Program-made: the position numbers and the translations under genes
Notes under the pieces: model-generated
Databases searched by the model: none
Told to the model about the DNA's origin: nothing
What the model saw: the letters and a program-made list of their open reading frames with translations, nothing else
Assembly: GCA_964551735.1 (NCBI GenBank)
Contig: CAZKEF010000001.1
Span: 118,167-182,166 of the forward strand
Direction: 5' to 3'
Length of the DNA stretch: 64,000 bases
Source of the DNA: an uncultured Anaerolineales bacterium
GTDB lineage: Bacteria; Chloroflexota; Anaerolineae; CG2-30-64-16
Shown: one piece after another, positions 4,984 through 53,159 of the stretch
How positions within the stretch are numbered: the first letter of the stretch is position 1
Layout: the number at the start of each line of letters is the position of its first letter

Positions 4984-6156
4984 ATGCCATTGACCCTGCA
5001 GCCCGTGACCACGCGACGCGATCTGCGGCGCTTCGTGACTTTCCCCTGGCGCATCTACCGCGACGACCCCAATTGGGTGCCGCCGTTGATCGCCGCGCAG
5101 ATGGACAAGCTGACGCCGGGCCGCAATCCCTTTTGGGCGGACGCCGAGCGTCAGTTGTGGCTGGCGCTGGATGGCCGGCAGCCGGTGGGGACCATCGCGG
5201 CGATCGTGGATCACCACGCCAACCGGACCACGGGTGAAACCGCGGGCAGCTTCGGCTTCTTCGAGTGCGTGGATGACCCGGCGGTCGCCCGTGCGCTGCT
5301 CGACACAGCCGCGGGGTGGCTGGCCGGCCGCGGCATGACTGTGATGCGCGGGCCGTACAATCCCGGCCCCAACGACGAGTACGGGCTGCTGGTCGAAGGC
5401 CATGCCACCCGGCCGGCCCTGCTGGAAGGCCACACCCCGCCCTACTACGTCGCCCTGGTCGAGGCGGCCGGCTGCCACAAACACTGGGAGTCGGTGGCGT
5501 GGCTGGCGACCGTGCCCCCCGGCGCGCGCCGCGTGGAGGATATTTTGCCCGCCAAACTATTGCGGGCGACCGAATGGGCTGAGGCAAGCTCCCGGGCCTG
5601 CCTGCGGCCGATGAACCTGGCGCGCTGGGATGACGAAATCGGCCTGGCCTGCCGCATCTACAATGCCGCCCTGGCGCACCTGCCCAACCATGTCCCCGTG
5701 CCCGAGGCAGACTTCCGGCACTTGGCCGCTTCTTTCAAACCGTTGATAGACCCCGCACTGGCACTCCTGGCTGAGGTGGATGGCGAGCCGGCCGGTTTCG
5801 CGCTGACCCTGCCCGACGTCAACGAGGCGCTGCAGCACGCTAACGGCCGGCTGTGGCCGACCGGCGCGCTCAAGCTGTGGTGGCACGGCCGGCGTCTGCA
5901 CCGCGCGACTTTTAAGATTCTGATGGTCCGGCCGGAGTTCCGTGGGCGCGGGATCGAGATGCTGCTGATGGCCGAGACGGCGCGCGCCATCTTCGCCCGC
6001 GGCTTCCGCGAAGTGGACATGTCGCTGACCGGCGAAGACAACGAAGCCATGCAGCGCCTGATGGCCGGCCTCCACATGCAGGTGTACCGGCGCTATCGGA
6101 TTTACGAGCGGGAGGTGGGGAGGAAGGACGGACGACCGGCGACCGATGACGAATGA
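4984..6156 (+). CDS. GNAT-like acyltransferase family protein (about 390 aa, substrate unknown)
   Basis: Acetyl-CoA-binding-like segment ILMVRPEFRGRGIEMLLMAETARAIFARGF. GAGGTGA RBS. A sigma70-like promoter lies at 4920..4948. Confidence 0.7.
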   Translation: MPLTLQPVTTRRDLRRFVTFPWRIYRDDPNWVPPLIAAQMDKLTPGRNPFWADAERQLWLALDGRQPVGTIAAIVDHHANRTTGETAGSFGFFECVDDPAVARALLDTAAGWLAGRGMTVMRGPYNPGPNDEYGLLVEGHATRPALLEGHTPPYYVALVEAAGCHKHWESVAWLATVPPGARRVEDILPAKLLRATEWAEASSRACLRPMNLARWDDEIGLACRIYNAALAHLPNHVPVPEADFRHLAASFKPLIDPALALLAEVDGEPAGFALTLPDVNEALQHANGRLWPTGALKLWWHGRRLHRATFKILMVRPEFRGRGIEMLLMAETARAIFARGFREVDMSLTGEDNEAMQRLMAGLHMQVYRRYRIYEREVGRKDGRPATDDE

Positions 6157-6215: not shown

Positions 6216-7619
6216 ATGACCACACCACCCTCCTCCACCCACCTGTCCCGCCGCACGAAGATCATCTTCGGACTGGGCGATTGGGGGCCGACCACGGTTG
6301 GCACGGCCTTCATGTTCTTCTTCGCCTTTTTCCTCACCGACGTGGCTCGGCTCCCGCCGGCCTATGCCTCGGTGGTGCTGCTCATCGGCGGGCTGTGGGA
6401 CGCGGTCAACGACCCGATCGTGGGCGTGCTGGCTGACCGGGTGCACACGCGCTGGGGCCGGCGCCGGCCATTCTTCCTCTTCGGCGCGGCGCCCTTCGCC
6501 CTCAGCGTGATCGCGCTATGGTGGGTGCCGCCGTGGGACGCGCCGTGGGCGATGATGCTCTATTACGCCGCGGCCTACCTGGTCTGGGACACCGCCTTTA
6601 CGCTTGTCAGCGTGCCCTATGCCGCGCTGACCCCTGAGCTGACGGAAGATTACGACGAGCGCACCCGGCTGAACGGCTATCGCATGGTGGTGAGCATGGC
6701 TGGCGGCCTGATTGCCGCGCTGGCCGTGCCGATCCTCGCCGGCCTCTTCACCCAGCCCAAGACCGGTTACCTGCTGGCCGCGGTCATCTTTGGCGTGTCA
6801 GGCGCATTGCCATACCTGCTGCTGTTTTTCGGGATTCGCGAGCGCTTCGTCTCTGCCCCGGCCGCTCGGCCCGCGGCCGGCCCGGCCCGGCCCGTTGCAG
6901 TGCTGCTGTCCATCTTCCGCAACCGGCCCTTTCGCTACGCGGCCGGCATCTACCTGACCTCGTGGGTAACGGTCAGCCTGGTGGCCGCGCTGTTTCAGTA
7001 TTTCCTCACCTATCCGATGCAGATGCCTGCCGATGTGGAGATCGTGCTCGGCCTGCTGCAGGCCTCCGCGCTGCTCTTCACTGCGGCTGCAGTCTGGCTC
7101 GGCACGCGGTGGGGCAAACAGCAAACCTATATCGCGGGCGTGATGTGGCTTTCCGCGATCGTGCTCTCGCTTACCTTCTTGCAGCCGGGGAGTCCGCCGC
7201 TTGTGTTTGTGCTGGCGCTGTTGGCCGGCTTCGGTGTGGCCGTTATTCAGGTGATCCCGTGGGCCATCGTGCCGGACGTGATCGAGGCGGATGAGCTGAT
7301 GACGGGCGTGCGCCGCGAGGGGACGTACTACGGGGTCCTCACCTTCGCTCAGAAGGGCGGCAACGCCCTGGCCCTGGCCCTGATGCAAGGAGTGCTGGCG
7401 GCCACCGGCTACGTGGCGGGCGCGGAGCAGCCGGCGGGCGCCCTGTTGGCGATCCGCCTGATGATCGGGCCGCTGCCGGCGGTGCTGCTGATCATCTCGG
7501 CGCTGCTGGCCTGGCGCTATCCGCTGACCCGCGCCCGTCACGCGGAGCTGCGCGTCCAGTTGGCCGAAAGACGAGGCAAGGCAGGGGAAGATGATTCACG
7601 TAGACCCCTGGCACAATAG
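6216..7619 (+). CDS. GPH/MFS-family cation:glycoside symporter-like transporter
   Basis: GPH-type N-terminal region FGLGDWG...LWDAVNDPIVGVLADRVHTRWGRRRPF and about 12 TM segments. ATG 6216 is preferred over 6153, which lies in a heptad-repeat tract. Confidence 0.8.
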   Translation: MTTPPSSTHLSRRTKIIFGLGDWGPTTVGTAFMFFFAFFLTDVARLPPAYASVVLLIGGLWDAVNDPIVGVLADRVHTRWGRRRPFFLFGAAPFALSVIALWWVPPWDAPWAMMLYYAAAYLVWDTAFTLVSVPYAALTPELTEDYDERTRLNGYRMVVSMAGGLIAALAVPILAGLFTQPKTGYLLAAVIFGVSGALPYLLLFFGIRERFVSAPAARPAAGPARPVAVLLSIFRNRPFRYAAGIYLTSWVTVSLVAALFQYFLTYPMQMPADVEIVLGLLQASALLFTAAAVWLGTRWGKQQTYIAGVMWLSAIVLSLTFLQPGSPPLVFVLALLAGFGVAVIQVIPWAIVPDVIEADELMTGVRREGTYYGVLTFAQKGGNALALALMQGVLAATGYVAGAEQPAGALLAIRLMIGPLPAVLLIISALLAWRYPLTRARHAELRVQLAERRGKAGEDDSRRPLAQ

Positions 7620-10215
7620 ACTCATCCGGTACATCCTGCGCCGGGCCGCAGTAGTCCTGCTGACGGTGATCGCCAGCGTGTACGTGACCATCCTGGCCGC
7701 GAACCTGGGCGGCCATGTGGATAAAATCACGCGCGGCATCATCATTGACCGGCTTGAGTTGCGGGCTGACACGCCGGAGATGCGGGCCCTCACGCCCGAA
7801 CAGCGGAATGCGATCTACCAACAGGAACTGACCAGGTTAGAGAAGGCCGCGGGGCTGCACGAACCCTTCATCTGGCGCAGCTTCCGCCATCTGGCGCGGA
7901 TCCTCACGCTCGACTGGGGGCGCAGCTGGGCCACCTTGACCGGCAAACTCGCGGCGTCGGGTTCGCGGCTCTACGACAACCGGCTGATCATCGCTGATCG
8001 GATCCCTGCCACCCTGCTTCTGCTCGGCTTCGCCACCCTATTCACCTTTATCAGCAGCCTCTACCTCGGGCTGTACCTCTCGCAAAACCGCGGCCGGTGG
8101 TTGGGCGACGCGGCGGCTCTGCTTTCTCCCCTCTCATCCATGCCGGCCTGGTTCTATGGCGTGTTCCTGGTCGCCATCCTCGGCGCAGTGCTGCCTGCTC
8201 GCGGTATGCTGCCCACGCCACCGCCTGAGTCCAGGTTCCACTATGCCCTGGGCGTGGCAGAGCATATGATCCTGCCTTCTCTGGCCATCTGCCTCAGCGT
8301 CTTCTTCGTCAGCGTCAATACTTGGCGCACTTACTTCCAGATCTACGCCAACGAAGACTATGTCGAACTTGCCCGTGCCAAGGGCCTCACGCCGGCGCTG
8401 ATCAGGCGGCGCTTTATCCTGCGTCCAGCGCTGCCGGCGGTCTTTACCGGCTTCTCCCTGACGCTCCTGGGGATCTGGTCTGGCTCACTGGTGCTGGAGA
8501 TCCTGTTCGATTGGCCGGGGTTAGGACAGCTCTACTATACTGCCGTCAACACGTTGAACACCGGGCTGGTCTTGGGGCTGACTGTCGTCTACGCGTGCTT
8601 CCTGGGCATCACGCTGTTCATCCTGGACATCGCGTACGCGCTGGTAGATCCGCGCATTCGCATCGCTGACCAAAGCGACGGCCCGCAAGACCTGAGGATC
8701 GCGCGGGCGATCAGCCGCAGCGAACGGATACGGCTGTGGCTCCGGGACGCCAGGGATCGGCTCAGTAACTTGCTCACGTCCCCTAGAGGTTCACCCTCAA
8801 GCCAGCGTCCGGGTGAGATCGCACCGATGTCACTCGCCCCCAGGCCCCGCCGCTGGATGCCCGCAAGCTCCCGGCCGGTTGCCGAACGCCTGCGCCGCGG
8901 CCTGGCAGACCTGGCGAGCCACCCCTCAGCCCTGGTTGGGCTGTTCGTGATCGGCACTATGATCTGCATCGCGATCTATGCGGTCGTCGCGATTCCGCGG
9001 GACGAAGCTATCAGGCAGTGGCGCATCTCACCCAGCCTTGAGCTGCCGCGTAACGCCCGGCCCGTCTGGTTCAACCTGTTCACCCGCACCAAGCTCCCGG
9101 CGACGATCATTCTGGACAGCCACGCCGGGCAAGCCGAGAAGCGGGTGGAGACGTTCAACGGGGGCAAAGAGATCCTCCTGGCCTTCAATGTCCATTATCC
9201 GTATGACGCTTTCCCCCAGGAATTGAATGTCCTCTTCGACGTCGAATTCGATAGCCGGCCGCCGCACGTCGCGTTGTCATGGCTCACGCCCGATGGCCGG
9301 GAGATCCGGATCGGCGAACTGGCGCCAACCCGCCAACAACTGTATCGGTTCAACCAGGATAGCCGCTTGGTGCGGCGCTCGAATGCCGCGCCACCCCAGC
9401 GCGTGCTTTTCCTGGGCCCCACTGGGACCGGTGATGCGCCCGTCAAAGGCGCCTACCGTCTGCAGATCAGCGGTCTGTTCTTCGAGGAAGCCGGGGACCT
9501 GGAAGCCCGTTTCGTGGTGCTTGGCCAGGTTCACGGTCTGGCAGGCACCGATCACCTGCGCCGCGACCTGATGATGGGGCTGCTGTGGGGCACGCCCACC
9601 GCCCTGGCGTTCGGCCTGTTGGGCGCGTTGCTGACTGGCATCGGCACCCTGCTGCTGGCGGCGGTGGGCGCCTGGTTTGGCGGCGCCTTAGATGCAGCCA
9701 TCCAGCGCCTTACCGAGATCAACCTGGCGCTGCCCGCGCTGCCCATCCTGGCGATGGTCGCTAAATTCTACACACTGAGCATCTGGTACTTGCTGGCCGC
9801 GGCCGTGCTGCTGAACATCTTCAGCAGCTCGCTCAAGTCATATCGGGCGATCCTGCTCCAAGCGAAGACCGCGCCCTACATCACAGCGGCTCTCGCTTAC
9901 GGCGCAGGGGACGGCCGCATCATCCGCGCCTACCTGATCCCGCGCATTGCCCAGGTGGTGATCCCCCAGATGGTGATCCTGGCGCCGGCTTACGTCTTCC
10001 TCGAGGCGGCGCTGGCCTTCCTGGGCCGCAGCGACCCCGCGCTCCCCACCTGGGGCAAGATCATCCATGATGCCCATGTGAACGGCGCCCTCCTGTACGG
10101 GAACCACTATTGGATATTGCTGCCGGCATGTTTGTTGCTGCTGCTCAGCCTGGCGTTTGCGCTGGTCGGACGCGATCTGGAGCGCGTCCTGGACCCGCGA
10201 CTGCGCGCAGCGTGA
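7591..10215 (+). CDS. fused ABC permease (DppB/OppB-like domain plus DppC/OppC-like domain)
   Basis: Two binding-protein-dependent transport inner-membrane domains (..ELARAKGLTPALIRRRFILRPALP.. and ..AALAYGAGDGRIIRAYLIPRIAQVV..) are joined by an Arg/Pro/Ser-rich linker of about 100 aa. No cognate ATPase or binding-protein gene is nearby. Confidence 0.8.
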   Translation: MIHVDPWHNRLIRYILRRAAVVLLTVIASVYVTILAANLGGHVDKITRGIIIDRLELRADTPEMRALTPEQRNAIYQQELTRLEKAAGLHEPFIWRSFRHLARILTLDWGRSWATLTGKLAASGSRLYDNRLIIADRIPATLLLLGFATLFTFISSLYLGLYLSQNRGRWLGDAAALLSPLSSMPAWFYGVFLVAILGAVLPARGMLPTPPPESRFHYALGVAEHMILPSLAICLSVFFVSVNTWRTYFQIYANEDYVELARAKGLTPALIRRRFILRPALPAVFTGFSLTLLGIWSGSLVLEILFDWPGLGQLYYTAVNTLNTGLVLGLTVVYACFLGITLFILDIAYALVDPRIRIADQSDGPQDLRIARAISRSERIRLWLRDARDRLSNLLTSPRGSPSSQRPGEIAPMSLAPRPRRWMPASSRPVAERLRRGLADLASHPSALVGLFVIGTMICIAIYAVVAIPRDEAIRQWRISPSLELPRNARPVWFNLFTRTKLPATIILDSHAGQAEKRVETFNGGKEILLAFNVHYPYDAFPQELNVLFDVEFDSRPPHVALSWLTPDGREIRIGELAPTRQQLYRFNQDSRLVRRSNAAPPQRVLFLGPTGTGDAPVKGAYRLQISGLFFEEAGDLEARFVVLGQVHGLAGTDHLRRDLMMGLLWGTPTALAFGLLGALLTGIGTLLLAAVGAWFGGALDAAIQRLTEINLALPALPILAMVAKFYTLSIWYLLAAAVLLNIFSSSLKSYRAILLQAKTAPYITAALAYGAGDGRIIRAYLIPRIAQVVIPQMVILAPAYVFLEAALAFLGRSDPALPTWGKIIHDAHVNGALLYGNHYWILLPACLLLLLSLAFALVGRDLERVLDPRLRAA

Positions 10216-33669: not shown

Positions 33670-34740
33670 CTATGTCCGGTTTTCGGGTCCGATCTGAATG
33701 GCAATCTTCCCCACGATGCGGCGGCTCATCTGCAAGCGGAAGGCTTCCCGCACCCCCGCTTCGGTGAACGGTAGCGTGTGCGCCAGGGTCACTTTGAGCT
33801 GGCCCGCGGCGCAGAAACGCGCCAGGGCCGCGAGGTCGGACGCACTGTTAGGGAACCTGACCCAGAACAGCTCACGGCCTTTGGCGAACAGGTTGACGCC
33901 CAGGAAGCGCCGCGCGTGCGCCCGCACCCAGTCGTCCACCCGGCCGCCGATAAAGATGTACATGCCGTCCTCGCGCAGCAGGCGCGGCCGCGCACGGCGA
34001 ATCCGGCGCTCGTAGGCGAAACGGGCGTCCCGCGGGTCGTGCGACGAGACCGAGTCGAAGACCAGGTCGAACGGCCCGCACGCCCGCACGACCGCGGCAA
34101 AACTTGCCATGAAGTCATCCGCGTCATAGGTGATGACCTGATCGGCGCCCAGGCTCCGGACAAAGTCCGCGTTGCGCTGCCCGCACAGCGCGGTCACACA
34201 GGCGCCCTTGATCTTCGCCACCTGCACGGCCACGTGGCCCGTGCCGCCCGATGCGCCGAGCACCAGCACATGCTGGCCGGCCGCCAGCCGGTTATCCTGA
34301 AACGCTTGCAGCGCGGTCAACCCCACCAGCGGGACCACGCACCCCTCCGCGAAGGACAGATTTTCCGGCAGCAGCGCGATGGAGTCCAACGGCGCGCGTA
34401 CGTACTCTGCAAACGTGCCGGCCAGCGGCGGGATCGTGCCGAAGACCCGATCCCCCACGGCATACTGGCGCCCGGCCGGGGCCTCCACCACCACCCCGCT
34501 GAAATCAATGCCGCACACATGGGCTTCGATCTTGCGCTGCACCAGGGGCAGGAAGGCATGCGGCAGCTTATCACCATACAGGAACTTCGCGTCAACCGGA
34601 TTGACGCCGCCGCCGTACACACGACACACGACATACGGGCGGCCCGGAGCTTCTGCGGCCGCCCCATCCAGGGCCGGCCGCGGCCGCTCAACCATTTTCA
34701 CCCCTGCGGGACAATCCCGGGCGTAGACGATCGCTTTCAT
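33670..34740 (-). CDS. MDR-superfamily NAD(P)H-dependent oxidoreductase (quinone oxidoreductase/zeta-crystallin-like)
   Basis: Nucleotide-binding motif VLVLGASGGTGHVAVQVAK. AAAGGGAG RBS before ATG 34740. Confidence 0.85.
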   Translation of the reverse strand: MKAIVYARDCPAGVKMVERPRPALDGAAAEAPGRPYVVCRVYGGGVNPVDAKFLYGDKLPHAFLPLVQRKIEAHVCGIDFSGVVVEAPAGRQYAVGDRVFGTIPPLAGTFAEYVRAPLDSIALLPENLSFAEGCVVPLVGLTALQAFQDNRLAAGQHVLVLGASGGTGHVAVQVAKIKGACVTALCGQRNADFVRSLGADQVITYDADDFMASFAAVVRACGPFDLVFDSVSSHDPRDARFAYERRIRRARPRLLREDGMYIFIGGRVDDWVRAHARRFLGVNLFAKGRELFWVRFPNSASDLAALARFCAAGQLKVTLAHTLPFTEAGVREAFRLQMSRRIVGKIAIQIGPENRT

Positions 34741-34793
34741 GCCTGCTCCCTTTGTGTTCGGCAAAGATGCTGCGCCGATCGCAGCCGGTGCGC

Positions 34794-34802
34794 ATTATGC
34801 CA
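34794..34802 (-). promoter_or_regulatory. extended -10 element TGGCATAAT
   Basis: Reverse complement of ATTATGCCA, 54 nt upstream of ATG 34740. Confidence 0.35.
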
Positions 34803-34885
34803 CAGCCAGGCTCAGATAGCGAGTCCTCTGCCGGGCAGCAGCAATGCCAACACCCGGCCGGGTAGGACAATAACTGGCGGCTCTC

Positions 34886-37231
34886 TTACCTCGCAGCAGC
34901 ACTACCCTGCGCTCGCCGCAGCGCCAGCCCTACCAGAGCATAGATCGCGGCCGCAGCAGCGGCCAGGGCCGCCACGCCGGACCAGAGCAGCGCGGCCGGC
35001 ACGCTGTCTGCCATCGAATAGCGCAGCAGGTTGATCATCTGCGCGCCGGGCAGCCAGGCCAGGAACGACCGCAGCGCGGCGGGCCAGGTCGCAGGGGCCA
35101 GGAACGCGGCCGCGGTCAGACCGCCTAACCCGAGTAGCCCGCCGACGCCCCACAGGCTCAGCGCGCTTGGGTTGTCCGCCAGCACCCCCAGCAGCAAGCC
35201 CAGCGCTACGACGCAGGCGATGCCCAACAGCACGGCGGCGAGCGCGGCGCCCGGTGCGGCGACGAATGACCAGTTGAACGCCAGCAGCACTGCGGCCGCG
35301 ACCAGGCAATAGGTGAAGCCTGCCGCGGCTTTCGCGGTCACGAGTTGCCCCAGGCTGGCCGGCGAGACCAGCAGCGTGTCCAGCGTGTGCGCCTCTTTCT
35401 CTTCGATCAGCAGCAGCGGCACCAACACCAGGCCCAGCGTGGAGACCACGATCACCAACAGGAGCGCGGCCATGAACGGCTCGCCCCCCGCATCGGCCGC
35501 GGGATAGAGTACATGCGCCGGATCAGCCGGCCCCGCGCCCAGGTTGATCCGCACCGGCCGGCCCAGCGCGGCGCTTAGCTCAGCTGCGAAGAAGTCGGCC
35601 CATGCGCCGATCTTGTCCGCCGCGGCCCAGTGCGCCCGGTAGCCGGCCGCCGCGACGGCCTGATCGCCGGACAGCTCTGCCGGTATCACCAGACCGAGCC
35701 GCGCCGCGCGCGTTTGGGTCAGAGCTTGCTCCATCTCGGCGCGGGAGTCCATCAAGACCAATCGGAAATCGCTGCGACCCACCAGCTCGCGCAGCGCATT
35801 GTAGTGCAAGCTGCCGGCTTGCGCCTCATCGTAGATGACCGCAATTGGGATCGTATCTCGGAACAGCAGCCGCGGCAGCAGCGCATTGGTGCCGATCATG
35901 ATCCCGACTCCGAAGAGGATCGAGATGAACATCCGGTTGCGCAGCGCCTCCCGGATGTCTTTGGCGGCGATGGCCCCGATGATGCGGAGCGGGGCAGGGA
36001 GACCTAACCTCCCGACCCCCTTCCCTCCCAGGGAAGGGGGAGTTGTGCCCTCCTCTCCTCGCAGGGGAGGGGTCAAGGGACGGGCAGATCCACCGGCTGA
36101 AGCCTCGATACCAGATCGAGAGGTCTTCTCCCCTGCCCGATCCTGCTGGCGCACGAGCCAGGCAACGGCCGCCAGCACCACGCCGGCCCAGGCCAGCACC
36201 CATGCAAGGCCGATGAGGCCGCTCCCGGCCGGGATGGGGTCGGCGATGGCGGTGCGGAGCAGGTTGAAGACCACGACCGTCGGAATCCAGCGCATCACCT
36301 GTACGAGCATGGCCGGGATGAGCGGTTCCAGCAACGTCAGGATCACCGGGAAGAGCAACGGGACAACGAGGATGGAAGTCCAGACGGCCAATTGTCCGCG
36401 GTCTTCGATGCGCATGCCCAGCCACAGCCCGATTGCCACGAGGAACAGCGCGCCCGCCGCCGTGGCTGTGATCGCCAGCCCCCAGTGCAGGATCAGGGTG
36501 TGGTTGATCGCCAGCGCGATGGCCGCGGCGAGCAGCGTATAGAGGAGGCCGGTGAGGGCCTTGCCGATGAGCAGGTGCACAGTGCTGGCCGGCGAAACCA
36601 GCAGCACCTCCAGCGTGCGGCCCTTCTTCTCCTCCAGCATCAGGTGCGGCACCAGCACCAGCCCAACCATCACCAGCACAAAAAGCAGACTCAGCCCCAT
36701 CGTAACGCCGATCCCCCCGGAATCGGGGCGCGGGTACACGGGCGCCTGCGGCTCGATCGTCACCGGCGCGCCGGCCAGACGGCTGATCTCGGCGGCCGCG
36801 CTCGCGCGCAGAGCTGCGCCGGCTTCTTCCGACACCCAGTTCATGGTGTAACCCCGCAAGGCCGGCGGCCGGCCCTCAGCCACGGCCTGATCGAAGCCGG
36901 CCGGGATCACCAGGCCCAGCTCCGGCACGTCACCATGGGTCAGCGTCTCCTGGAGATGCGCCACCGACCGGTAACGAGTCCACACGGCGAAGGCCGGGCT
37001 GGCCTCCAGTTGCGCGACCAGGGAGGAGCCGCCCTCGTCGTAGATCAGCAGGCTGGGCGGCTCCATGCCGCCGAGCAGCCCAGGGTAGACCCGGTAGAAG
37101 ACCACCATCAGCAGCGAAGTAACAAGCAAGGCGACAATGTTCTTGTTCTTGAGCGCCTCAAGGATATCTTTGGCGGTGATGGCCCACATGATCCGCAGAT
37201 GGGCCTGCCAACGAGTTTTCATGGTGTTCAT
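34886..37231 (-). CDS. tandem-fused ABC-2 type permease (two ABC2_membrane halves)
   Basis: Both halves start with the same pattern (LRIMWAITAKDILEALKNKN / LRIIGAIAAKDIREALRNRM) and each has a large loop plus 5-6 TM segments. The linker is encoded by repeat sequence. Confidence 0.85.
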   Translation of the reverse strand: MNTMKTRWQAHLRIMWAITAKDILEALKNKNIVALLVTSLLMVVFYRVYPGLLGGMEPPSLLIYDEGGSSLVAQLEASPAFAVWTRYRSVAHLQETLTHGDVPELGLVIPAGFDQAVAEGRPPALRGYTMNWVSEEAGAALRASAAAEISRLAGAPVTIEPQAPVYPRPDSGGIGVTMGLSLLFVLVMVGLVLVPHLMLEEKKGRTLEVLLVSPASTVHLLIGKALTGLLYTLLAAAIALAINHTLILHWGLAITATAAGALFLVAIGLWLGMRIEDRGQLAVWTSILVVPLLFPVILTLLEPLIPAMLVQVMRWIPTVVVFNLLRTAIADPIPAGSGLIGLAWVLAWAGVVLAAVAWLVRQQDRAGEKTSRSGIEASAGGSARPLTPPLRGEEGTTPPSLGGKGVGRLGLPAPLRIIGAIAAKDIREALRNRMFISILFGVGIMIGTNALLPRLLFRDTIPIAVIYDEAQAGSLHYNALRELVGRSDFRLVLMDSRAEMEQALTQTRAARLGLVIPAELSGDQAVAAAGYRAHWAAADKIGAWADFFAAELSAALGRPVRINLGAGPADPAHVLYPAADAGGEPFMAALLLVIVVSTLGLVLVPLLLIEEKEAHTLDTLLVSPASLGQLVTAKAAAGFTYCLVAAAVLLAFNWSFVAAPGAALAAVLLGIACVVALGLLLGVLADNPSALSLWGVGGLLGLGGLTAAAFLAPATWPAALRSFLAWLPGAQMINLLRYSMADSVPAALLWSGVAALAAAAAAIYALVGLALRRAQGSAAAR
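35990..36135. repeat. cluster of GC-rich palindromic repeats translated as the inter-domain linker of the permease
   Basis: Perfect 10-bp stem CCCCCTTCCC (36016..36025) / GGGAAGGGGG (36031..36040). CCCTCCTCTCCTCGCAGGGGAGGGG. R1 half-copy CCGGCTGAAGCCTCGAT at 36093..36109. Confidence 0.7.
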
Positions 37232-37252
37232 GGTTCTCCCTCCATCATTCCG

Positions 37253-37312
37253 GTAGGGGCGATCCCTTGCGGTCGCCCTGGGGCAGGGGCAGGCGCGAGG
37301 CCATGCCCCTAC
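37253..37312. repeat. R4 hairpin (GTAGGGGC...GCCCCTAC) between the ATPase and permease genes
   Basis: 8-bp outer stem (37253..37260 / 37305..37312) and an inner GGCGA..TCGCC stem. The stop codon of the ATPase gene lies in the 3' arm. Confidence 0.65.
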
Positions 37313-38034
37313 AGCAATTCGCGACCGGTCAACGCGATAAAGACGTCCTCCAACGTGCCCCCGCCGTGGGTGGCTTTTAGCCCAGCGGGCGCATCCAGCG
37401 CGACGATCCGGCCCCGATCCAGGATCGCGACCCGGTTGCAGAGCTGGTCGGCCTCCTCCATGTAGTGGGTGGTCAGGAAGACCGTGATGCCCTGCCGCGC
37501 CAGGTCAGCCACCATCTGGCGGATGCCGCGCGCCATGGCGGGGTCGAGGCCACGCGTCGGCTCGTCCAGGAAGAGCACCGCCGGCCGGTGGATCAGCGCC
37601 CGGCCGATCAGCAGCCGCTGCTTCATGCCGTTGGAGTAGGCCTTCAGGCCGTCGTTTGCCCGCTCGGCCAGACCGACCTGCGCAAGCACCTCGTCCACGC
37701 GGGACTTCGGGACGCCGTAGAGGCTGGCCGCGAAGTTCAGGTTGTCGCGGGCCGAAAGGCGTTGATAGAGGTTCTGGTATTCGAACACCACCCCGATCTG
37801 CGGCTTGAGCGCGTCCCGCTCCGTCACCACATCGCAGCCCATCACCCAGGCGCGGCCCGCGCTGGGGCGCAACTGCCCGGTCAGGATCTTGATGGTGGTG
37901 GTCTTGCCCGCGCCGTTGGGGCCGAGGAAGCCGAAAACCTCCCCCGGCTCGACAGCGAAACTGATGCCTGCCAGTGCGACCAACCCATCGTAGCGTCGTT
38001 CCAACGCTTCTACTTCAATTGTCTTGCCGTTCAT
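37309..38034 (-). CDS. ABC transporter ATP-binding protein (canonical)
   Basis: Walker A GPNGAGKTT, signature YSNGMKQR, Walker B LFLDEPT and H-loop TTHYMEEA. GGAGG RBS. Confidence 0.92.
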   Translation of the reverse strand: MNGKTIEVEALERRYDGLVALAGISFAVEPGEVFGFLGPNGAGKTTTIKILTGQLRPSAGRAWVMGCDVVTERDALKPQIGVVFEYQNLYQRLSARDNLNFAASLYGVPKSRVDEVLAQVGLAERANDGLKAYSNGMKQRLLIGRALIHRPAVLFLDEPTRGLDPAMARGIRQMVADLARQGITVFLTTHYMEEADQLCNRVAILDRGRIVALDAPAGLKATHGGGTLEDVFIALTGRELL

Positions 38035-38064
38035 TGCACACCTCCGAACGTGAACTCTGCGTCC

Positions 38065-38093
38065 AGTATATGAACTCCTGCGGGCGAATGCAA
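38065..38093 (-). promoter_or_regulatory. candidate promoter TTGCAT-17-TATACT for the ATPase/permease genes
   Basis: On the minus strand, the -35 is the reverse complement of 38088..38093 and the -10 of 38065..38070. Confidence 0.5.
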
Positions 38094-38116
38094 CAGAAAC
38101 GCGTTGAACGGCGCTA

Positions 38117-38159
38117 GGGGAACGACGAATGGCGGTTTTGGCGGGTTGAATGATGAATG
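38117..38159 (-). promoter_or_regulatory. two direct repeats CATTC(A/G)TC(A/G)TTC upstream of the -35 (candidate LytTR site)
   Basis: On the minus strand, CATTCATCATTCAAC is the reverse complement of 38145..38159 and CATTCGTCGTTCCCC of 38117..38131. Start-to-start spacing is 28 nt. Confidence 0.3.
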
Positions 38160-38173
38160 CCCTTTAGCATGTT

Positions 38174-38234
38174 GGATTCGAGGCTTTCGCCGGCTGGGTG
38201 ATCAACGCGAGAAACCGGCTGAAGCCTCGATTCC
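38174..38234. repeat. R1 hairpin repeat, copy b
   Basis: GGATTCGAGGCTTTCGCCGG ... CCGGCTGAAGCCTCGATTCC. Confidence 0.7.
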
Positions 38235-38284
38235 GGAGATTTCTAAGAATCACTCCCGGCCAAATCCATCTGGTGCGACGCTTA

Positions 38285-39274
38285 TCAGTATCCCAGCAGA
38301 TCCTTCAATTCCCCCGCGGCCGATTTGCTCAGCGGGATCTCGGCGCCGGCCGCGTCATCCAGGCGGAGGCTGAAGCTGTTGCGGGTGTAGGGGATGATCT
38401 CCCGGATGTGCTGCAGGTTGACGAGATATGAACGATGGGCGCGGAAAAAGCCGCTGCGCGCCAGCCGCGCCTCAAGCTCGGCCAGCGTGAACTGGGTGGT
38501 CAGACGGCCAGAGGCTGTTTGTATGATGGCATGGCCGCCCTGCGCCTCCACGTAGCGGATGTCGGCCGGGTTGAGAAGGATCACCTTGTCCTCGGTGCGC
38601 ACGGGAATCTTGAAGGGCTGAAGTGCGGGCGTCGTGGCGTCGGGCCGGGGCGCTTCGGCCAGGCGGCCGCCGCTGATCGTGTAGATCGTATCGCACAGCG
38701 GCTCCAGATAGGCCGCGTCATCGGCCAGGATCAGCACGGCTGCGCCGGCCTCAGCCAGATCACGAATGAGGCGCCCCAGGAGCGCGATGGTCGCCTGATC
38801 GCAGCGAACGAACGGATCAGCCAGGAGCAGCGCCTGGGGCCGGTGCAGGAGCGCGCGGCCGAAGGCCAGCCGGCGGCGCGAGCCAGGGGGGAGCTTGTCC
38901 AGCCTGGCCTCCGCCTGCTCCCCCAGCCCGACCTGCGCCAGCACTTCGTCAGCGCGGCTCGAGGGGAGGCCGTGCAACTGGCAGTGCAGCGTCAGGTTCC
39001 CCCGGGGTGATCGGCGCAGATACAGCCCGTCTTCCGTGAAAAGGACGCCGACCACGCGGCTGAAGGCGGCCCGATCGGCCGGATCGCACCCGGCCAGCCG
39101 TACCGAGCCGGCCGAAGGCCGCGCCCGGCCGAGCAGCACCTCGAAAAACGCCTCAATGCCGCTGCCCGGCGGCCCGACGATCGCCGCAAGCTCGCCCGTC
39201 TCAACGCGCAGGGCCGCGACGTCGAGGATGAGCTGCTGTCCGGCAAGCACCTGGAGGTCTTTGATCTCGATCAT
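38285..39274 (-). CDS. degenerate ABC-ATPase-like domain fused to a LytTR DNA-binding domain
   Basis: N-terminal NBD fold with all catalytic motifs substituted (GPPGSGIEA, LPPGSRRRL, LLLADPF). C-terminal LytTR domain ..ILLNPADIRYVEAQGGHAIIQT..LAELEARL..GFFRAHRSYLVNLQHI.. Confidence 0.85.
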   Translation of the reverse strand: MIEIKDLQVLAGQQLILDVAALRVETGELAAIVGPPGSGIEAFFEVLLGRARPSAGSVRLAGCDPADRAAFSRVVGVLFTEDGLYLRRSPRGNLTLHCQLHGLPSSRADEVLAQVGLGEQAEARLDKLPPGSRRRLAFGRALLHRPQALLLADPFVRCDQATIALLGRLIRDLAEAGAAVLILADDAAYLEPLCDTIYTISGGRLAEAPRPDATTPALQPFKIPVRTEDKVILLNPADIRYVEAQGGHAIIQTASGRLTTQFTLAELEARLARSGFFRAHRSYLVNLQHIREIIPYTRNSFSLRLDDAAGAEIPLSKSAAGELKDLLGY

Positions 39275-39283
39275 GGCATGCTT

Positions 39284-39312
39284 ATTCTACTACGAAGGAC
39301 ATTCGGCGGCAA
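39284..39312 (-). promoter_or_regulatory. candidate promoter TTGCCG-17-TAGAAT, only 9 nt from the ATG (near-leaderless)
   Basis: On the minus strand, the -35 is the reverse complement of 39307..39312 and the -10 of 39284..39289. No Shine-Dalgarno sequence lies between the -10 and ATG 39274. Confidence 0.4.
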
Positions 39313-39384
39313 TCTCGGATCATCCACCTGTCCAACCCCCAAATCATCCGGTTGGCCGATGCCGGCGGGAAGTTCTCGTTGTAT
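39293..39384 (+). repeat. third, diverged copy of the tail element of the PIG-L duplication
   Basis: TTGGCCGATGCCGGCGGGAAGTTCTCGTTGTAT (39352..39384) matches TTGGCCGATGCCGCCGGGGAGTTTTCGTTGTAT (11220..11252, 28473..28505). Weaker similarity extends about 60 nt upstream. Confidence 0.55.
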
Positions 39385-39437
39385 CATGTTTGTTAGAGAA
39401 CAAAGGCGCGTCAGGCAAAGCAAAGATGGAGGAAAGC

Positions 39438-40151
39438 ATGACGGCTCAGCAAACATCCGGGGGCGTGGATGCTCGCCGGGCGATCACCGGCTGGCTGGTG
39501 AGGACAGTGCTGTTCGTGCCGTTCATCGGCGCGATCATCTTCTGGGCCGCGGGCACGGTTCGCTGGCTCAACGCGTGGGTCTATGTGCTGTGGTACCTGG
39601 TCGTCTCGGTGGCGGCCGTGTTCCTCAGCGATCCGGCGCTGCTGGCAGAGCGCTCCGGCGCCCGGCGGGTCAAGGGCCAGAAGGGGTGGGACAGGGCATT
39701 GCTCGGCCTTTACGGCGCGATCACCCCCCTGGTCATCCCCATCGTCGCAGGACTGGACCTCCGCCTCGGCTGGCGGCCAGAGGTGGCAGTCTGGCTCCAG
39801 GTCGCCGCGTTCGTCGTCTACGCGCTGGGTTGGGCCTTGCACCTGTGGGCCATGGCTGCGAACCGCTACCACGCGCTGGTGGTACGCATCCAGTCCGACC
39901 GCGGGCAGACGGTGGTGACGGGCGGGCCGTACCGCTTCGTGCGCCATCCCGGTTACGTGGGCGGTATCGCGATGACCGTGGCCGCAGCGCTGGTGCTCGG
40001 CTCCGTCTGGGCGCTGATCCCCGGCGTGCTGGGCGGGCTGCTGCTGATCATCCGCACGATCCTGGAGGACCGGACGTTACAGCGGGAGTTGGACGGTTAC
40101 CGCGCGTACGCGGCCCGCGTGCGCTACCGGCTGCTGCCGGGGGTGTGGTGA
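39438..40151 (+). CDS. ICMT-family (isoprenylcysteine carboxyl methyltransferase-like) membrane methyltransferase
   Basis: GGPYRFVRHPGYVGG...LEDRTLQRELDGYRAYAARVRYRLLPGVW and about 5 TM segments. Alternative start ATG 39426. Confidence 0.8.
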   Translation: MTAQQTSGGVDARRAITGWLVRTVLFVPFIGAIIFWAAGTVRWLNAWVYVLWYLVVSVAAVFLSDPALLAERSGARRVKGQKGWDRALLGLYGAITPLVIPIVAGLDLRLGWRPEVAVWLQVAAFVVYALGWALHLWAMAANRYHALVVRIQSDRGQTVVTGGPYRFVRHPGYVGGIAMTVAAALVLGSVWALIPGVLGGLLLIIRTILEDRTLQRELDGYRAYAARVRYRLLPGVW

Positions 40152-40187
40152 AAAACGGCTTTGGCCGAAAAGAGGTAGAGCAGAAAG

Positions 40188-41219
40188 ATGGATACCACTC
40201 AAGATGCGATCAAAGTCCCTGGCGCCCCGGCCATCCCGGGGCTCGTGTTTCGCCACTTCGGCGGGCCAGCCGATTTCCCGGCCATGGTTGCGGCACTCAA
40301 TGCCAGCGAGGCCGCGGATGGCGAGGAACGCGTCGTCACGGTGGAAGGGATCACGAACAACTACGCGCACCTGTCGAACAGCGACCCGGCGCACGATATG
40401 CTGATCATCGAAGTAAACGGCGAGGTGGTCGGCTATGCGCGCGTCTTTTGGTTTGACGAAACCGGCGGGCCGATCGTGTATACCCCCTTCGCCTACCTGG
40501 CCCCTGCGTGGCGACGCAAAGGCATCGGCCGTGCGACCCTGCGCTGGACGGAACACCGCCTGGCCGAGATCGCGGCCGGCCATCCCGGCGATCGAGCCAA
40601 GGTCTACCAGACCTTCGCCCTGCAGGGCGCCGCGGGCCTGACCGCACTGCTGGAACAGGAAGGCTACCGGCCGGTGCGCTATTTCTACCAGATGGTGCGG
40701 CCCGACCTGGAAGAAATCCCGGACTTCCCGCTCCCGGATGGGATCGAGGTGCGGCCGGCCCTGCCCGAGCACTATCGCGCCATTTGGGATGCCGGCAACG
40801 AAGCCTTCCGCGATCACTGGGGCTACTCGCCGCCGACCGAGGAGGACTACCAGGCCTGGCTGGGCGACAAAGCGCATTTCCAGCCCCACCTGTGGCAGAT
40901 CGCCTGGGATGTGGCCACCGACCAGGTCGCAGGCCAGGTGGGCACCTACATTGACTACGCCGAGAACGAGGAGTTCCACCGGCAGCGCGGGTGGACCGAA
41001 GGGATCAGCGTTTGCCGATCCTGGCGCCGCCGCGGCCTGGCGCGCGCGCTCATCGTCCGCAGCCTGCGCGCCCAAAAGGCGGCGGGGATGACCGAATCCG
41101 CGCTTGGCGTGGATAGCGAGAACATCAGCGGCGCTACCCGGGTCTATGAGGCCTGCGGCTTCCGCGTGATGAAGCGCAATACGGCCTATCGGAAGCTGTT
41201 GGCCGGCGGCCCGGCATGA
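40188..41219 (+). CDS. GNAT-family N-acetyltransferase with two GNAT halves (MshD-like layout)
   Basis: ..YLAPAWRRKGIGRATL.. and ..VCRSWRRRGLARALIVRSL...GATRVYEACGF. Paralogue of 1242..2270. Confidence 0.85.
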   Translation: MDTTQDAIKVPGAPAIPGLVFRHFGGPADFPAMVAALNASEAADGEERVVTVEGITNNYAHLSNSDPAHDMLIIEVNGEVVGYARVFWFDETGGPIVYTPFAYLAPAWRRKGIGRATLRWTEHRLAEIAAGHPGDRAKVYQTFALQGAAGLTALLEQEGYRPVRYFYQMVRPDLEEIPDFPLPDGIEVRPALPEHYRAIWDAGNEAFRDHWGYSPPTEEDYQAWLGDKAHFQPHLWQIAWDVATDQVAGQVGTYIDYAENEEFHRQRGWTEGISVCRSWRRRGLARALIVRSLRAQKAAGMTESALGVDSENISGATRVYEACGFRVMKRNTAYRKLLAGGPA

Positions 41220-52202: not shown

Positions 52203-53159
52203 GTGGACAAACAAGGCTTTCGCACCATGCTGGAAGGGCGCAAAGTGCCCGCCGACAAGCTGGACGCTGCCCTGGCGTTGGCGGAACGCTTCGAGCAGTA
52301 TGCCGAACAAACGGGCGGCTACTCCACCCAAACGGCCTGGGCATTCTCGAAAATCCTCATCGCCGAAGGGCAAAACAGCGAGGAGAACTTCATCACCCTG
52401 GCGCGCTACGGGCTGTTCACCCGAAATAACACCGTATTCGTGGCCTTCCTCGAAGTGCTGGATGGCGGCGAGGCGCAGGGGAATCTGTACCAGCGGGTGG
52501 CGGAAAGATATGGGGAGGCGCTGCGAGACCAAGTCTTCGCCGGGATCGGGCTGGCGCCCTTCGGCATCCCGACGCCTGAGAAGCCGCGCACCATGCAGCC
52601 GGTGATCGCGCGCCTGGAGCAGGCCCTCGGCCCGGAGGCCTGCCGGACGCTCATCGGCGACAGCCTGCGCGATCTACCGGACGAATACTATATCCAAGAC
52701 CGCGAGCTATACCAATCTTGCCAGGACGTGGACGAATACATTGCCCGCAAAAAGCAGGGGTTCGTCGCCCAGTTGGAAGCCTGCCAGCGCGAGGGACGCC
52801 TCTTCTTCGCCCAGGAAATCACCGATAAGGTGCTGGCGTTCGTGCGGAGCGAGCCGGAGATCGGCGGCGGGGTGCGGGTCGGGGATGTAGTCTACGAGAC
52901 CAAGATCCCCTTCCTGACCAAACAATACCTGGCCGAGACCGACCCGACGTTGAGGCGTTACTACTACTGCCACTGTCCCTGGGCGCGTGAAGCCATCCGC
53001 AGCGGAGAAAAGGTGGCGCCCATCTTCTGCAATTGCAGCGCCGGGTTCCACAAGAGGCCCTGGGAAGCCGCGCTGGGCCAAAAAATCGAGGTGGATGTGC
53101 TCGAATCGGTGCTGGCGGGCGCTGACCGCTGCCGGTTTGCCATCCATCTGCCAGGATAA
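52203..53159 (+). CDS. hypothetical protein with a Cys-rich C-terminal module
   Basis: AAGGAG RBS 6 nt before GTG 52203. The C-terminus YYCHCPWAREAI...IFCNCSAGFHKRPWE...ADRCRFAIHL suggests a metal/cluster-binding fold. Family not confidently recognised. Confidence 0.6.
   Translation: MDKQGFRTMLEGRKVPADKLDAALALAERFEQYAEQTGGYSTQTAWAFSKILIAEGQNSEENFITLARYGLFTRNNTVFVAFLEVLDGGEAQGNLYQRVAERYGEALRDQVFAGIGLAPFGIPTPEKPRTMQPVIARLEQALGPEACRTLIGDSLRDLPDEYYIQDRELYQSCQDVDEYIARKKQGFVAQLEACQREGRLFFAQEITDKVLAFVRSEPEIGGGVRVGDVVYETKIPFLTKQYLAETDPTLRRYYYCHCPWAREAIRSGEKVAPIFCNCSAGFHKRPWEAALGQKIEVDVLESVLAGADRCRFAIHLPG

Follow-up and report, generated by a model that had tools for sequence, protein, structure and literature searches.

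AgrA, AlgR, ComE and NatR are response regulators of the LytTR type, NatR belonging to the NatKR-NatAB sodium-exporter system of Bacillus subtilis, and in the BceAB-BceS system an ATP-binding cassette (ABC) transporter senses for its own regulation and signals through a histidine kinase. LytTR regulators also stand beside ABC transporters in LytTR regulatory systems (LRS), including SMU_1070c/1069c and SMU_433/434 of Streptococcus mutans and lmo0984-0987 of Listeria monocytogenes (Zou et al. 2018, PMC6193735), and the proven LytTR sites of LRS are 9-bp direct repeats with an 11-13-bp (12) spacer, lying ~10 bp upstream of the -35 element (PMC6193735). Here we describe a gene from an uncultured Anaerolineales bacterium of the phylum Chloroflexota, found in a stretch of 64,000 nucleotides (contig CAZKEF010000001.1, positions 118,167 to 182,166; hereafter the window), whose product joins a degenerate ABC nucleotide-binding domain (NBD) to a C-terminal LytTR DNA-binding domain. 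The conclusion that this fusion regulates the adjacent exporter is strongly supported, and we consider it likely that the fusion is a one-component LytTR-type activator dedicated to this ABC-2 (ABCA-like) exporter operon.

The original prediction, which was made by eye, had placed an ABC fold and a C-terminal LytTR domain in a single open reading frame (ORF) at 38285..39274 on the minus strand. Both domains were found there by Pfam: ABC_tran at aa 20-155 (E = 5e-15) and LytTR (PF04397) at aa 229-327, covering model positions 1-97 of 98 with 92.4 bits against a gathering threshold of 22.6. The gene and the parts of its product, in window positions, are:

38285..39274, minus strand: pseudo-NBD-LytTR fusion gene, 329 aa, with the stop codon TGA at 38285..38287 (ORF and Pfam)
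38648..39274, minus strand: dead ABC nucleotide-binding domain, aa 1-209 (AlphaFold2, Foldseek and motif census)
38618..38647, minus strand: flexible linker, aa 210-219 (AlphaFold2 pLDDT <50; conservation 0.43, the lowest of any segment)
38288..38617, minus strand: LytTR DNA-binding domain, aa 220-329 (Pfam PF04397, E = 2e-26)

Pfam gave no Response_reg match for the product, the N-terminal domain being ABC_tran, and no histidine kinase gene adjoins the fusion gene in the window. As it has no receiver domain, the fusion is not a response regulator. The fused NBD belongs to the DrrA/ABC-2 class (NCBIfam, 91 bits). An AlphaFold2 model of the fusion, built from 119 homologues, had a mean predicted local distance difference test (pLDDT) score of 88.8, with >90 for residues 1-209, <50 for residues 210-219 and ~85 for the LytTR domain. 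Foldseek aligned the modelled pseudo-NBD to LptB, HrtA, MacB and FtsE with a root mean square deviation of 2.2-2.8 Å over ~217 columns and a template modelling score of ~0.8 for LptB, HrtA and FtsE, suggesting that the fusion retains the NBD fold with both its RecA-like core and its helical subdomain. Mean conservation was highest in the LytTR domain (0.82, vs 0.68 for the NBD), where the stretch GFFRAHRSYLVNLQ...TRNS...IPLSK is almost invariant, Bacillales included. The N-terminus of the fusion, MIEIxxLQK, is also kept across relatives.

The fusion and the NBD encoded next door are 38% identical over 189 aa with one gap (BLASTP), and this alignment reproduced every motif substitution that had been read by eye. 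From the live NBD to the fusion, Walker A changes from GPNGAGKTT to GPPGSGIEA, the Q-loop from FEYQNLY to FTEDGLY (Gln to Asp), the signature from YSNGMKQRL to LPPGSRRRL, Walker B from LFLDEPT to LLLADPF (DE to AD) and the H-loop from TTH to LAD (His to Asp); the A-loop, where Tyr is replaced by Ala, can be added to the list. We then compared the motifs of 196 non-identical relatives of the fusion. The Q-loop Gln was found in none of them (177 have Asp there), the A-loop aromatic residue in none, the Walker B Asp in 1 and the H-loop His in 4, while at the position of the catalytic Glu there were 137 with Glu and 56 with Asp. The Walker A Lys is present in 103 of these relatives (53%) and the position after it is Ser or Thr in 33, so that K[ST] is kept in at most 33. 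The catalytic motifs have therefore been lost across the family and not by a lesion of one genome, as expected of a catalytically dead NBD. Of the substitutions whose conservation had been put up for checking, the loss of the H-loop His extends to nearly all relatives, whereas the loss of the Walker A Lys does not extend to the majority. The window's Lys to Ile change is thus lineage-specific, with the loss of catalysis itself old and family-wide, and the window pseudo-NBD very probably does not bind ATP. Compared with a functional ABC ATPase the domain has the fold but not the motifs, and it also departs from degenerate-site NBDs, the window copy having no Walker A Lys, no Ser/Thr after it, no A-loop aromatic residue and no Walker B Asp.

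Within the pseudo-NBD the best conserved segments are the signature helix (0.83), the Q-loop region (0.82) and Walker B/D-loop (0.77), for which the family sequences are LPSGLxRRLAFGRA, FAEDxLY and LLLxEPFARCD. New invariant residues occupy the former motifs (D82, R134, R135, F155, C158 and D159), and the ED in place of the Q-loop Gln is common to Chloroflexota and Bacillales members. Because there are no indels relative to the live NBD and because new invariant residues stand at the motifs, the pseudo-NBD is not randomly eroding; we read the remodelled, conserved motif segments as a putative repurposed interface. The D-loop residue Cys158 (38801..38803) is Cys in 194 of the 196 Chloroflexota relatives, in which 'RCD' replaces 'GLD', and this position is Val in Bacillales members. 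Cys98 (38981..38983) was found in 154 of the 196, and Cys194 lies at 38693..38695. As D-loops are opposite each other in NBD dimers, a redox-sensitive homodimer formed through the D-loop Cys is conceivable.

The DNA between the fusion gene and the exporter genes contains the following elements:

38145..38152, minus strand: LytTR box 1 (distal), CATTCAAC, in register with the conserved box that spans -59..-49, counted from the -35 hexamer
38124..38131, minus strand: LytTR box 2, CATTCGTC, 21 bp from box 1, at the conserved -38..-28
38103..38110, minus strand: LytTR box 3 (proximal), CGTTCAAC, 21 bp from box 2, ending 9 nt before the -35 hexamer
38065..38093, minus strand: transporter-operon promoter TTGCAT-17-TATACT, with the -35 hexamer at 38093..38088 and the -10 hexamer at 38070..38065

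Two direct repeats had been proposed ahead of the transporter promoter. The repeats are real, conserved and of the LytTR type, but they had been read in the wrong register and the third, promoter-proximal box had been missed: the 12-mers at 38159..38148 and 38131..38120 overlap boxes 1 and 2, the first of them out of register. We aligned the regions downstream of the fusion gene, anchored on the promoter, from 63 unique loci. They share a layout that centres on a TTGCA with hardly any variation: counted from it, three boxes of the form C(C/A)nTTCAnCC begin at -59, -38 and -17, and TAnnnT comes 16-17 nt after it. The proximal box is the most conserved of the three (gCGCCgTTcGgCG) and is followed by an invariant T-run. 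The 21-bp spacing places the boxes on one face of the helix. The Bacillales loci have the same CTCCATTCA boxes with the same 21-bp period, as in L086, where CTCCATTCACC, CTCCAAACCCC and CTCCTTTCACC are 21 bp apart each. Both a full-length LytTR domain and direct-repeat sites just upstream of a -35 element, as is typical of the LytTR family, are therefore found at this locus. The boxes CCGTTCGTG (L001) and CCATTCGTC (window) also resemble the AlgR 9-mer, CCGTTCGTC.

The tandem pattern is strongly enriched at this position. There were 2 matches at the locus vs 0.07 expected in the window, and a loose version of the pattern gave 67 matches in the 32 kb of fusion-NBD region of 84 loci vs 13 in the other 1.7 Mb, a ~275-fold enrichment between the fusion and the NBD. 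Two further tandem matches in the window, at 6127..6155 and 52308..52335 (both minus strand), were weak and were judged to be chance matches and not regulon members; the former falls where two long plus-strand ORFs meet.

The promoter that had been assigned to the transporter genes is present, with TTGCA nearly invariant in the 63 loci, and GGAGG, a Shine-Dalgarno sequence, precedes the ATG of the live NBD at 38034. A generic promoter scan did not call this promoter because TTGCAT fits only 3 of the 6 positions of TTGACA, and the call therefore rests on conservation across loci. With centres at about -49, -70 and -91 beside a conserved, non-consensus -35 hexamer, the boxes are positioned like those of an activator, which suggests that the fusion switches the operon on.

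In many lineages (for example L003 at ~9055-9080, L061 and L082) the proximal box sits within a GC palindrome followed by T6 (GCGCCGTTCGGCGC-TTTTTT). This palindrome folds at -10.5 to -14 kcal/mol, has the compensatory variant CCGCC/GGCGG and resembles a terminator of the regulator gene that overlaps the LytTR site. At 38094..38115 in the window and in L001 there is no such hairpin and the T-run is still conserved. We rejected a terminator hairpin over box 3 as a general part of the system, given that it is strong (-10.5, -14.1 kcal/mol) only in some lineages, weak in the window (-4.5 kcal/mol, z -0.4) and missing from L001. No RNA element was matched by Rfam in 34000..40500 at E ≤ 0.1.

Downstream of the promoter are the two transporter genes:

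37309..38034, minus strand: live ABC ATPase of 241 aa, DrrA/ABCA-like, in which every motif is canonical (Pfam, NCBIfam)
34886..37231, minus strand: tandem-duplicated ABC-2 permease, 781 aa (Pfam ABC2_membrane_3/_2, two stretches)

The live NBD matched ABC_tran at E = 4e-32 (Pfam) and DrrA with 275 bits (NCBIfam), and its best solved structures in a PDB search were, by a wide margin, the NBDs of the eukaryotic ABCA-family members ABCA7, ABCA3, ABCA1 and ABCA4 (E = 5e-77 to 2e-69). The two halves of the permease are 35% identical (E = 2e-31), and hydropathy gives each of them a first transmembrane segment, an extracytoplasmic loop of ~130 aa and 5 more hydrophobic transmembrane segments; no solved homologue of the permease was found in the PDB by sequence. 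The large outside loop after the first transmembrane segment gives the permease halves the topology of the ABCA type. The window transporter thus appears to be a bacterial exporter of the ABCA-like kind in which a single chain holds both membrane halves, and by analogy our guess for its substrate would be a lipid or another hydrophobic compound.

Synteny was examined in 72 Chloroflexota loci with at least 2.5 kb of sequence downstream and in 3 Bacillales loci. In 66 of the 72 Chloroflexota loci a live NBD lies 124-900 bp downstream of the fusion gene on the same strand and is followed by 2-4 ABC-2 permease genes, the live NBDs of related loci being 59-95% identical to that of the window. All 3 Bacillales loci (Paenalkalicoccus, Oceanobacillus and Paenibacillus) have the order fusion - NBD - one ABC2_membrane gene. 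The pairing of the fusion with a live NBD and an ABC-2 permease, on which the original prediction depended, is therefore conserved in both groups. The tandem duplication of the permease that it also described is real in the window but is not general, since relatives have 1-4 separate permease genes. At L073 and L075 (6001-9700) the fusion and three boxes are followed by a CTGCGC -35-like hexamer, another gene and then a distant permease (24% identical), with the NBD coming last and only 37% identical to that of the window; here a different transporter may have been recruited by the same type of regulator.

In the window, the 250 bp between 38285 and 38034 contain no minus-strand ORF of at least 30 aa. 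ORFs of 55-120 aa occur between the box-promoter and the live NBD gene in ~25 related loci, about one third of relatives (L001 at 9190-9384, L003 at 9098-9355, and also L007, L013, L023, L024, L038, L039, L043, L050, L076, L078 and others). Their products have two hydrophobic glycine-zipper-like segments, such as DNPGxLGVGPAIGxSIGVAIGE and RPWSFLVGFFTGVVTGVGT, and are of at least two sequence types; these small transmembrane proteins gave no significant match in Pfam.

The regulator gene has a promoter of its own:

39284..39312, minus strand: regulator-gene promoter TTGCCG-17-TAGAAT, 9 nt before the ATG (promoter scan)

This near-leaderless arrangement, which had been proposed for the window, recurs in about one third of relatives. 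TAnAAT ends 6-10 nt before the start codon in 25 of 80 unique relatives, 17 of which have an extended TGn, and an SD-like (Shine-Dalgarno-like) sequence was found in 16 of the 80 loci; the two are nearly mutually exclusive, both being present in only 1. In the window there is no Shine-Dalgarno sequence before the ATG of the fusion gene. The regulator thus appears to be expressed separately, probably from a leaderless mRNA in about a third of the family. No LytTR boxes were found upstream of the regulator gene in 80 loci, so that the regulator, unlike those of LRS, is not arranged for autoregulation.

The family is large. A first search gave >120 full-length ABC_tran+LytTR homologues at 59-85% identity, and a scan of one genome per species gave relatives in 127 genomes, the best 80 matches all being from Chloroflexota (Anaerolineae, Promineifilaceae, Ardenticatenales and Thermoflexia). 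HMMER, run exhaustively against 1.84 billion representatives, returned 89 clusters with E ≤ 1e-30, and many of these are full-length (27-45% identity). The distant members, >2000 proteins matching at E ≤ 1e-10, come from cultured Bacillales (among them Paenalkalicoccus, Oceanobacillus, Sporosarcina, Ornithinibacillus, Virgibacillus, Paenibacillus, Cytobacillus and Domibacillus). The ABC_tran+LytTR architecture is therefore not rare, being found in thousands of proteins from Chloroflexota and cultured Bacillales. The P-loop of Bacillales members is frequently unrecognisable (e.g. AIQCNHELGS), while P0141, P0149 and P0183 keep GSGKTT and LLLDEP and lack the signature and H-loop.

Database names for these proteins are generic or contradictory, including 'LytTR family ... 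domain-containing protein', 'response regulator transcription factor', 'ABC transporter ATP-binding protein' and 'hypothetical protein', and they may conflict within one cluster, as for P0201/P0273 (Domibacillus epiphyticus). The JGI label for most members is 'ABC-2 type transport system ATP-binding protein'. Two full fusion copies were found in each of the genomes CP070708.1 (L071, L078), VRUJ01 (L022, L047), DUEZ01 (L013, L065), DATHZS01 (L058, L064) and WSZX01 (L044, L051), each copy having its own transporter genes where the sequence extends far enough. The LytTR domains and boxes of both copies are very similar, which raises the question of cross-talk, and for this reason the input domain may have to supply the specificity in two-module genomes. 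In two relatives assembled from metagenomes the fusion gene contains an in-frame TAG, after which the frame continues normally (L022 at ~6244-6246 and L054 at ~6529-6531); the gene could be a pseudogene, or the TAG could stem from a faulty assembly or from another cause. L054 could make its LytTR half as a separate protein of 133 aa, and in L022 the transporter genes follow only after another ~4 kb and have tandem boxes of their own at 9787.

Taken together, these observations suggest the following mechanism. The fusion would be made from its own, probably constitutive and near-leaderless promoter, which has no LytTR boxes, and its LytTR domain would bind the three direct 8-10-bp boxes, C(C/A)nTTCRnC, that are spaced 21 bp apart and end 9 nt upstream of TTGCA. 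From these boxes it would activate transcription of the live ATPase and the permease. The N-terminal half, which appears to be a complete but dead paralogue of the transporter's ATPase class, would serve as an input or interaction module in which the surfaces that once formed the ATP sandwich and the coupling contacts are remodelled and conserved. Its likeliest partner would be the cognate transporter, either the live NBD or the coupling helix of the permease, and the state of the transporter would then set the amount of regulator that is free to assemble on the three boxes.

Contact between the dead NBD and the transporter falls somewhat short of probable in our judgement. The invariable pairing with an exporter of the same ATPase class in two phyla is consistent with such a partner. 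Among its paralogues in the window, the pseudo-NBD also matches the neighbouring NBD best (123 bits vs 74, 48 and 41). A need for specificity from the input domain in genomes with two modules, if it exists, would fit as well. The helical subdomain of an NBD contacts the membrane domains and is usually its most family-specific part; in this subdomain the pseudo-NBD family consensus is 60% identical to that of the cognate live NBDs, vs 31% for three other, unrelated NBDs of the window, and it is less like the cognate NBDs than these three controls are in Walker A, Walker B and the H-loop. More specifically, and only tentatively, the dead NBD may dock on the exporter, occupying the permease's coupling-helix groove or pairing head-to-tail with the live NBD, with transporter occupancy or the ATPase cycle releasing or capturing the DNA-binding domain.

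Several points weigh against this picture. Activation is deduced from box position only, three boxes fit no simple dimer, and the NBD is not directly downstream in 6 of the 72 loci. In the window no terminator separates the regulator gene from the operon, so read-through could give basal expression that does not depend on the boxes. Between the two phyla the pseudo-NBDs are 21-27% identical (44-47% for the live NBDs), and at this level a conserved docking surface is not obvious. Shared descent could explain both the closest-paralogue score and the likeness of the helical subdomain, for which there were three control NBDs only.

As the main alternative, the pseudo-NBD might be no more than an oligomerisation scaffold, forming homodimers or larger oligomers through the former NBD-NBD interface that place LytTR domains on the tandem boxes and never touch the transporter, in which case any signal would be a small ligand or redox state, by analogy with the receiver-domain dimers of AgrA-/ComE-type regulators. 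The segments of this interface are indeed the most conserved and remodelled ones (the signature helix, the D-loop 'RCD' and Cys158, in 194/196), the linker between the domains is flexible, and LytTR proteins generally multimerise on direct repeats (PMC6193735); with Walker A and B intact in P0141, P0149 and P0183, ATP-dependent dimerisation could be ancestral. However, we think a pure scaffold unlikely: it leaves unexplained why the input is always an NBD of the adjacent transporter's own class in two phyla, the D-loop Cys is missing in Bacillales, and conservation extends to the Q-loop and helical subdomain, which are turned towards the membrane domain and not the dimer partner.

Alternatively, the fusion could be a stoichiometric subunit of the transporter that forms an asymmetric dimer with the live NBD, with at most one working site, its LytTR domain acting from the membrane as a C-terminal appendage placed like the regulatory domain of MalK. 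The complete NBD fold would allow this, as would the non-identical halves (35%) of the window permease, which could bind two different NBDs; MalK, MetN and CysA (NBD plus a C-terminal beta domain) align over their full length in Foldseek, and membrane-bound LytTR regulators are known (PMC6193735, PMC10269533). Against this, the A-loop aromatic residue, Walker A S/T, Walker B Asp, Q-loop Gln and H-loop His are lost and the signature is degenerate, so that both composite ATP sites would be defective, which makes a role as second ATPase subunit unlikely. The single permease gene of the Bacillales modules implies a symmetric homodimer, and the promoter of the regulator lies outside the box-controlled operon, so that stoichiometric co-expression is not built in; we regard this explanation as quite improbable. 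A dead ATPase duplicate that was accidentally fused to a regulator and is now decaying, its NBD half having no function, would account for the loss of all catalytic motifs and for the in-frame TAG of L022 and L054. It is, however, effectively refuted by the conservation data, as there are thousands of full-length members in two phyla, identity in the retained NBD half is still 27-85% across a deep divergence, there are no indels relative to the live NBD, the fold is predicted with high confidence, and new invariant residues stand at the former motifs. A dedicated activator of the adjacent exporter remains our preferred reading of the fusion.

The original prediction knew of no characterised example, and we likewise found no functional study of an ABC_tran-LytTR fusion in the searchable literature (subscription journals not covered). 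Domain databases list the architecture, which is common and generically annotated; functionally it is uncharacterised as far as could be searched. If our reading is correct, the pseudo-ABC-ATPase is a new input module for bacterial one-component regulators and would give a direct read-out of exporter state, in which a motor domain has been duplicated, inactivated and wired to DNA with no kinase or separate inhibitor. Should the docking proposal also hold, Chloroflexota and Bacillales would share a conserved transcription factor that senses the state of a transporter within a single polypeptide. Thousands of genes labelled 'ABC-2 type transport system ATP-binding protein' or 'response regulator' probably encode transcription factors, and the conserved box-promoter cassette predicts the regulon of family members. 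The cultured Bacillales members (Oceanobacillus, Sporosarcina, Paenibacillus and Virgibacillus) make the hypothesis genetically tractable, and the family offers a natural series of NBD degeneration, from intact Walker A and B to no P-loop at all, which can inform on the NBD fold without ATP.

Among known systems the fusion module works most like the ABC-linked LRS. Both have a LytTR regulator without a receiver domain, both have the order regulator - (small membrane protein) - ABC ATPase - ABC permease, and the box geometry of the fusion loci equals that of proven LRS sites; the small ORFs with two transmembrane segments in relatives occupy the position of the LRS membrane inhibitors. The fusion differs in that the regulator bears a 210-aa dead NBD, in having three boxes where LRS have two, in the lack of a membrane-inhibitor gene in the window and in the placement of the boxes downstream of the regulator gene, so that positive autoregulation is not built in. 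Measured against the definition of Zou et al. (2018), the module has the receiver-less regulator but neither the membrane inhibitor nor the autoregulatory repeats. It is therefore not an LRS as defined, there being no inhibitor gene in the window and no repeats placed for autoregulation.

With AgrA, AlgR, ComE and NatR the fusion shares the DNA-binding domain and the repeat geometry, and NatR, as is proposed for the fusion, controls an ABC-2 type exporter. Unlike these regulators, the fusion has no receiver domain or kinase, and an NBD-like input takes the place of phosphorylation. The degenerate-site NBDs of heterodimeric ABC exporters still bind ATP and keep most motifs, whereas the fusion family has lost the A-loop, Q-loop, Walker B and H-loop, together with the signature Ser and the Walker A Lys-Ser/Thr in most members. 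MalK, MetN and CysA are alike in architecture, an ABC NBD being followed by a C-terminal beta-rich domain, hence their full-length Foldseek alignment. As an idea, the control of a transcription factor by the state of a transporter ATPase is shared with MalK-MalT; there, however, MalK is a working ATPase and MalT a separate protein, while the fusion combines a dead NBD and the DNA-binding domain in the same chain. Compared with BceAB-BceS, the fusion would hold the sensor and the DNA-binding domain in one chain, with the ATPase inactivated.

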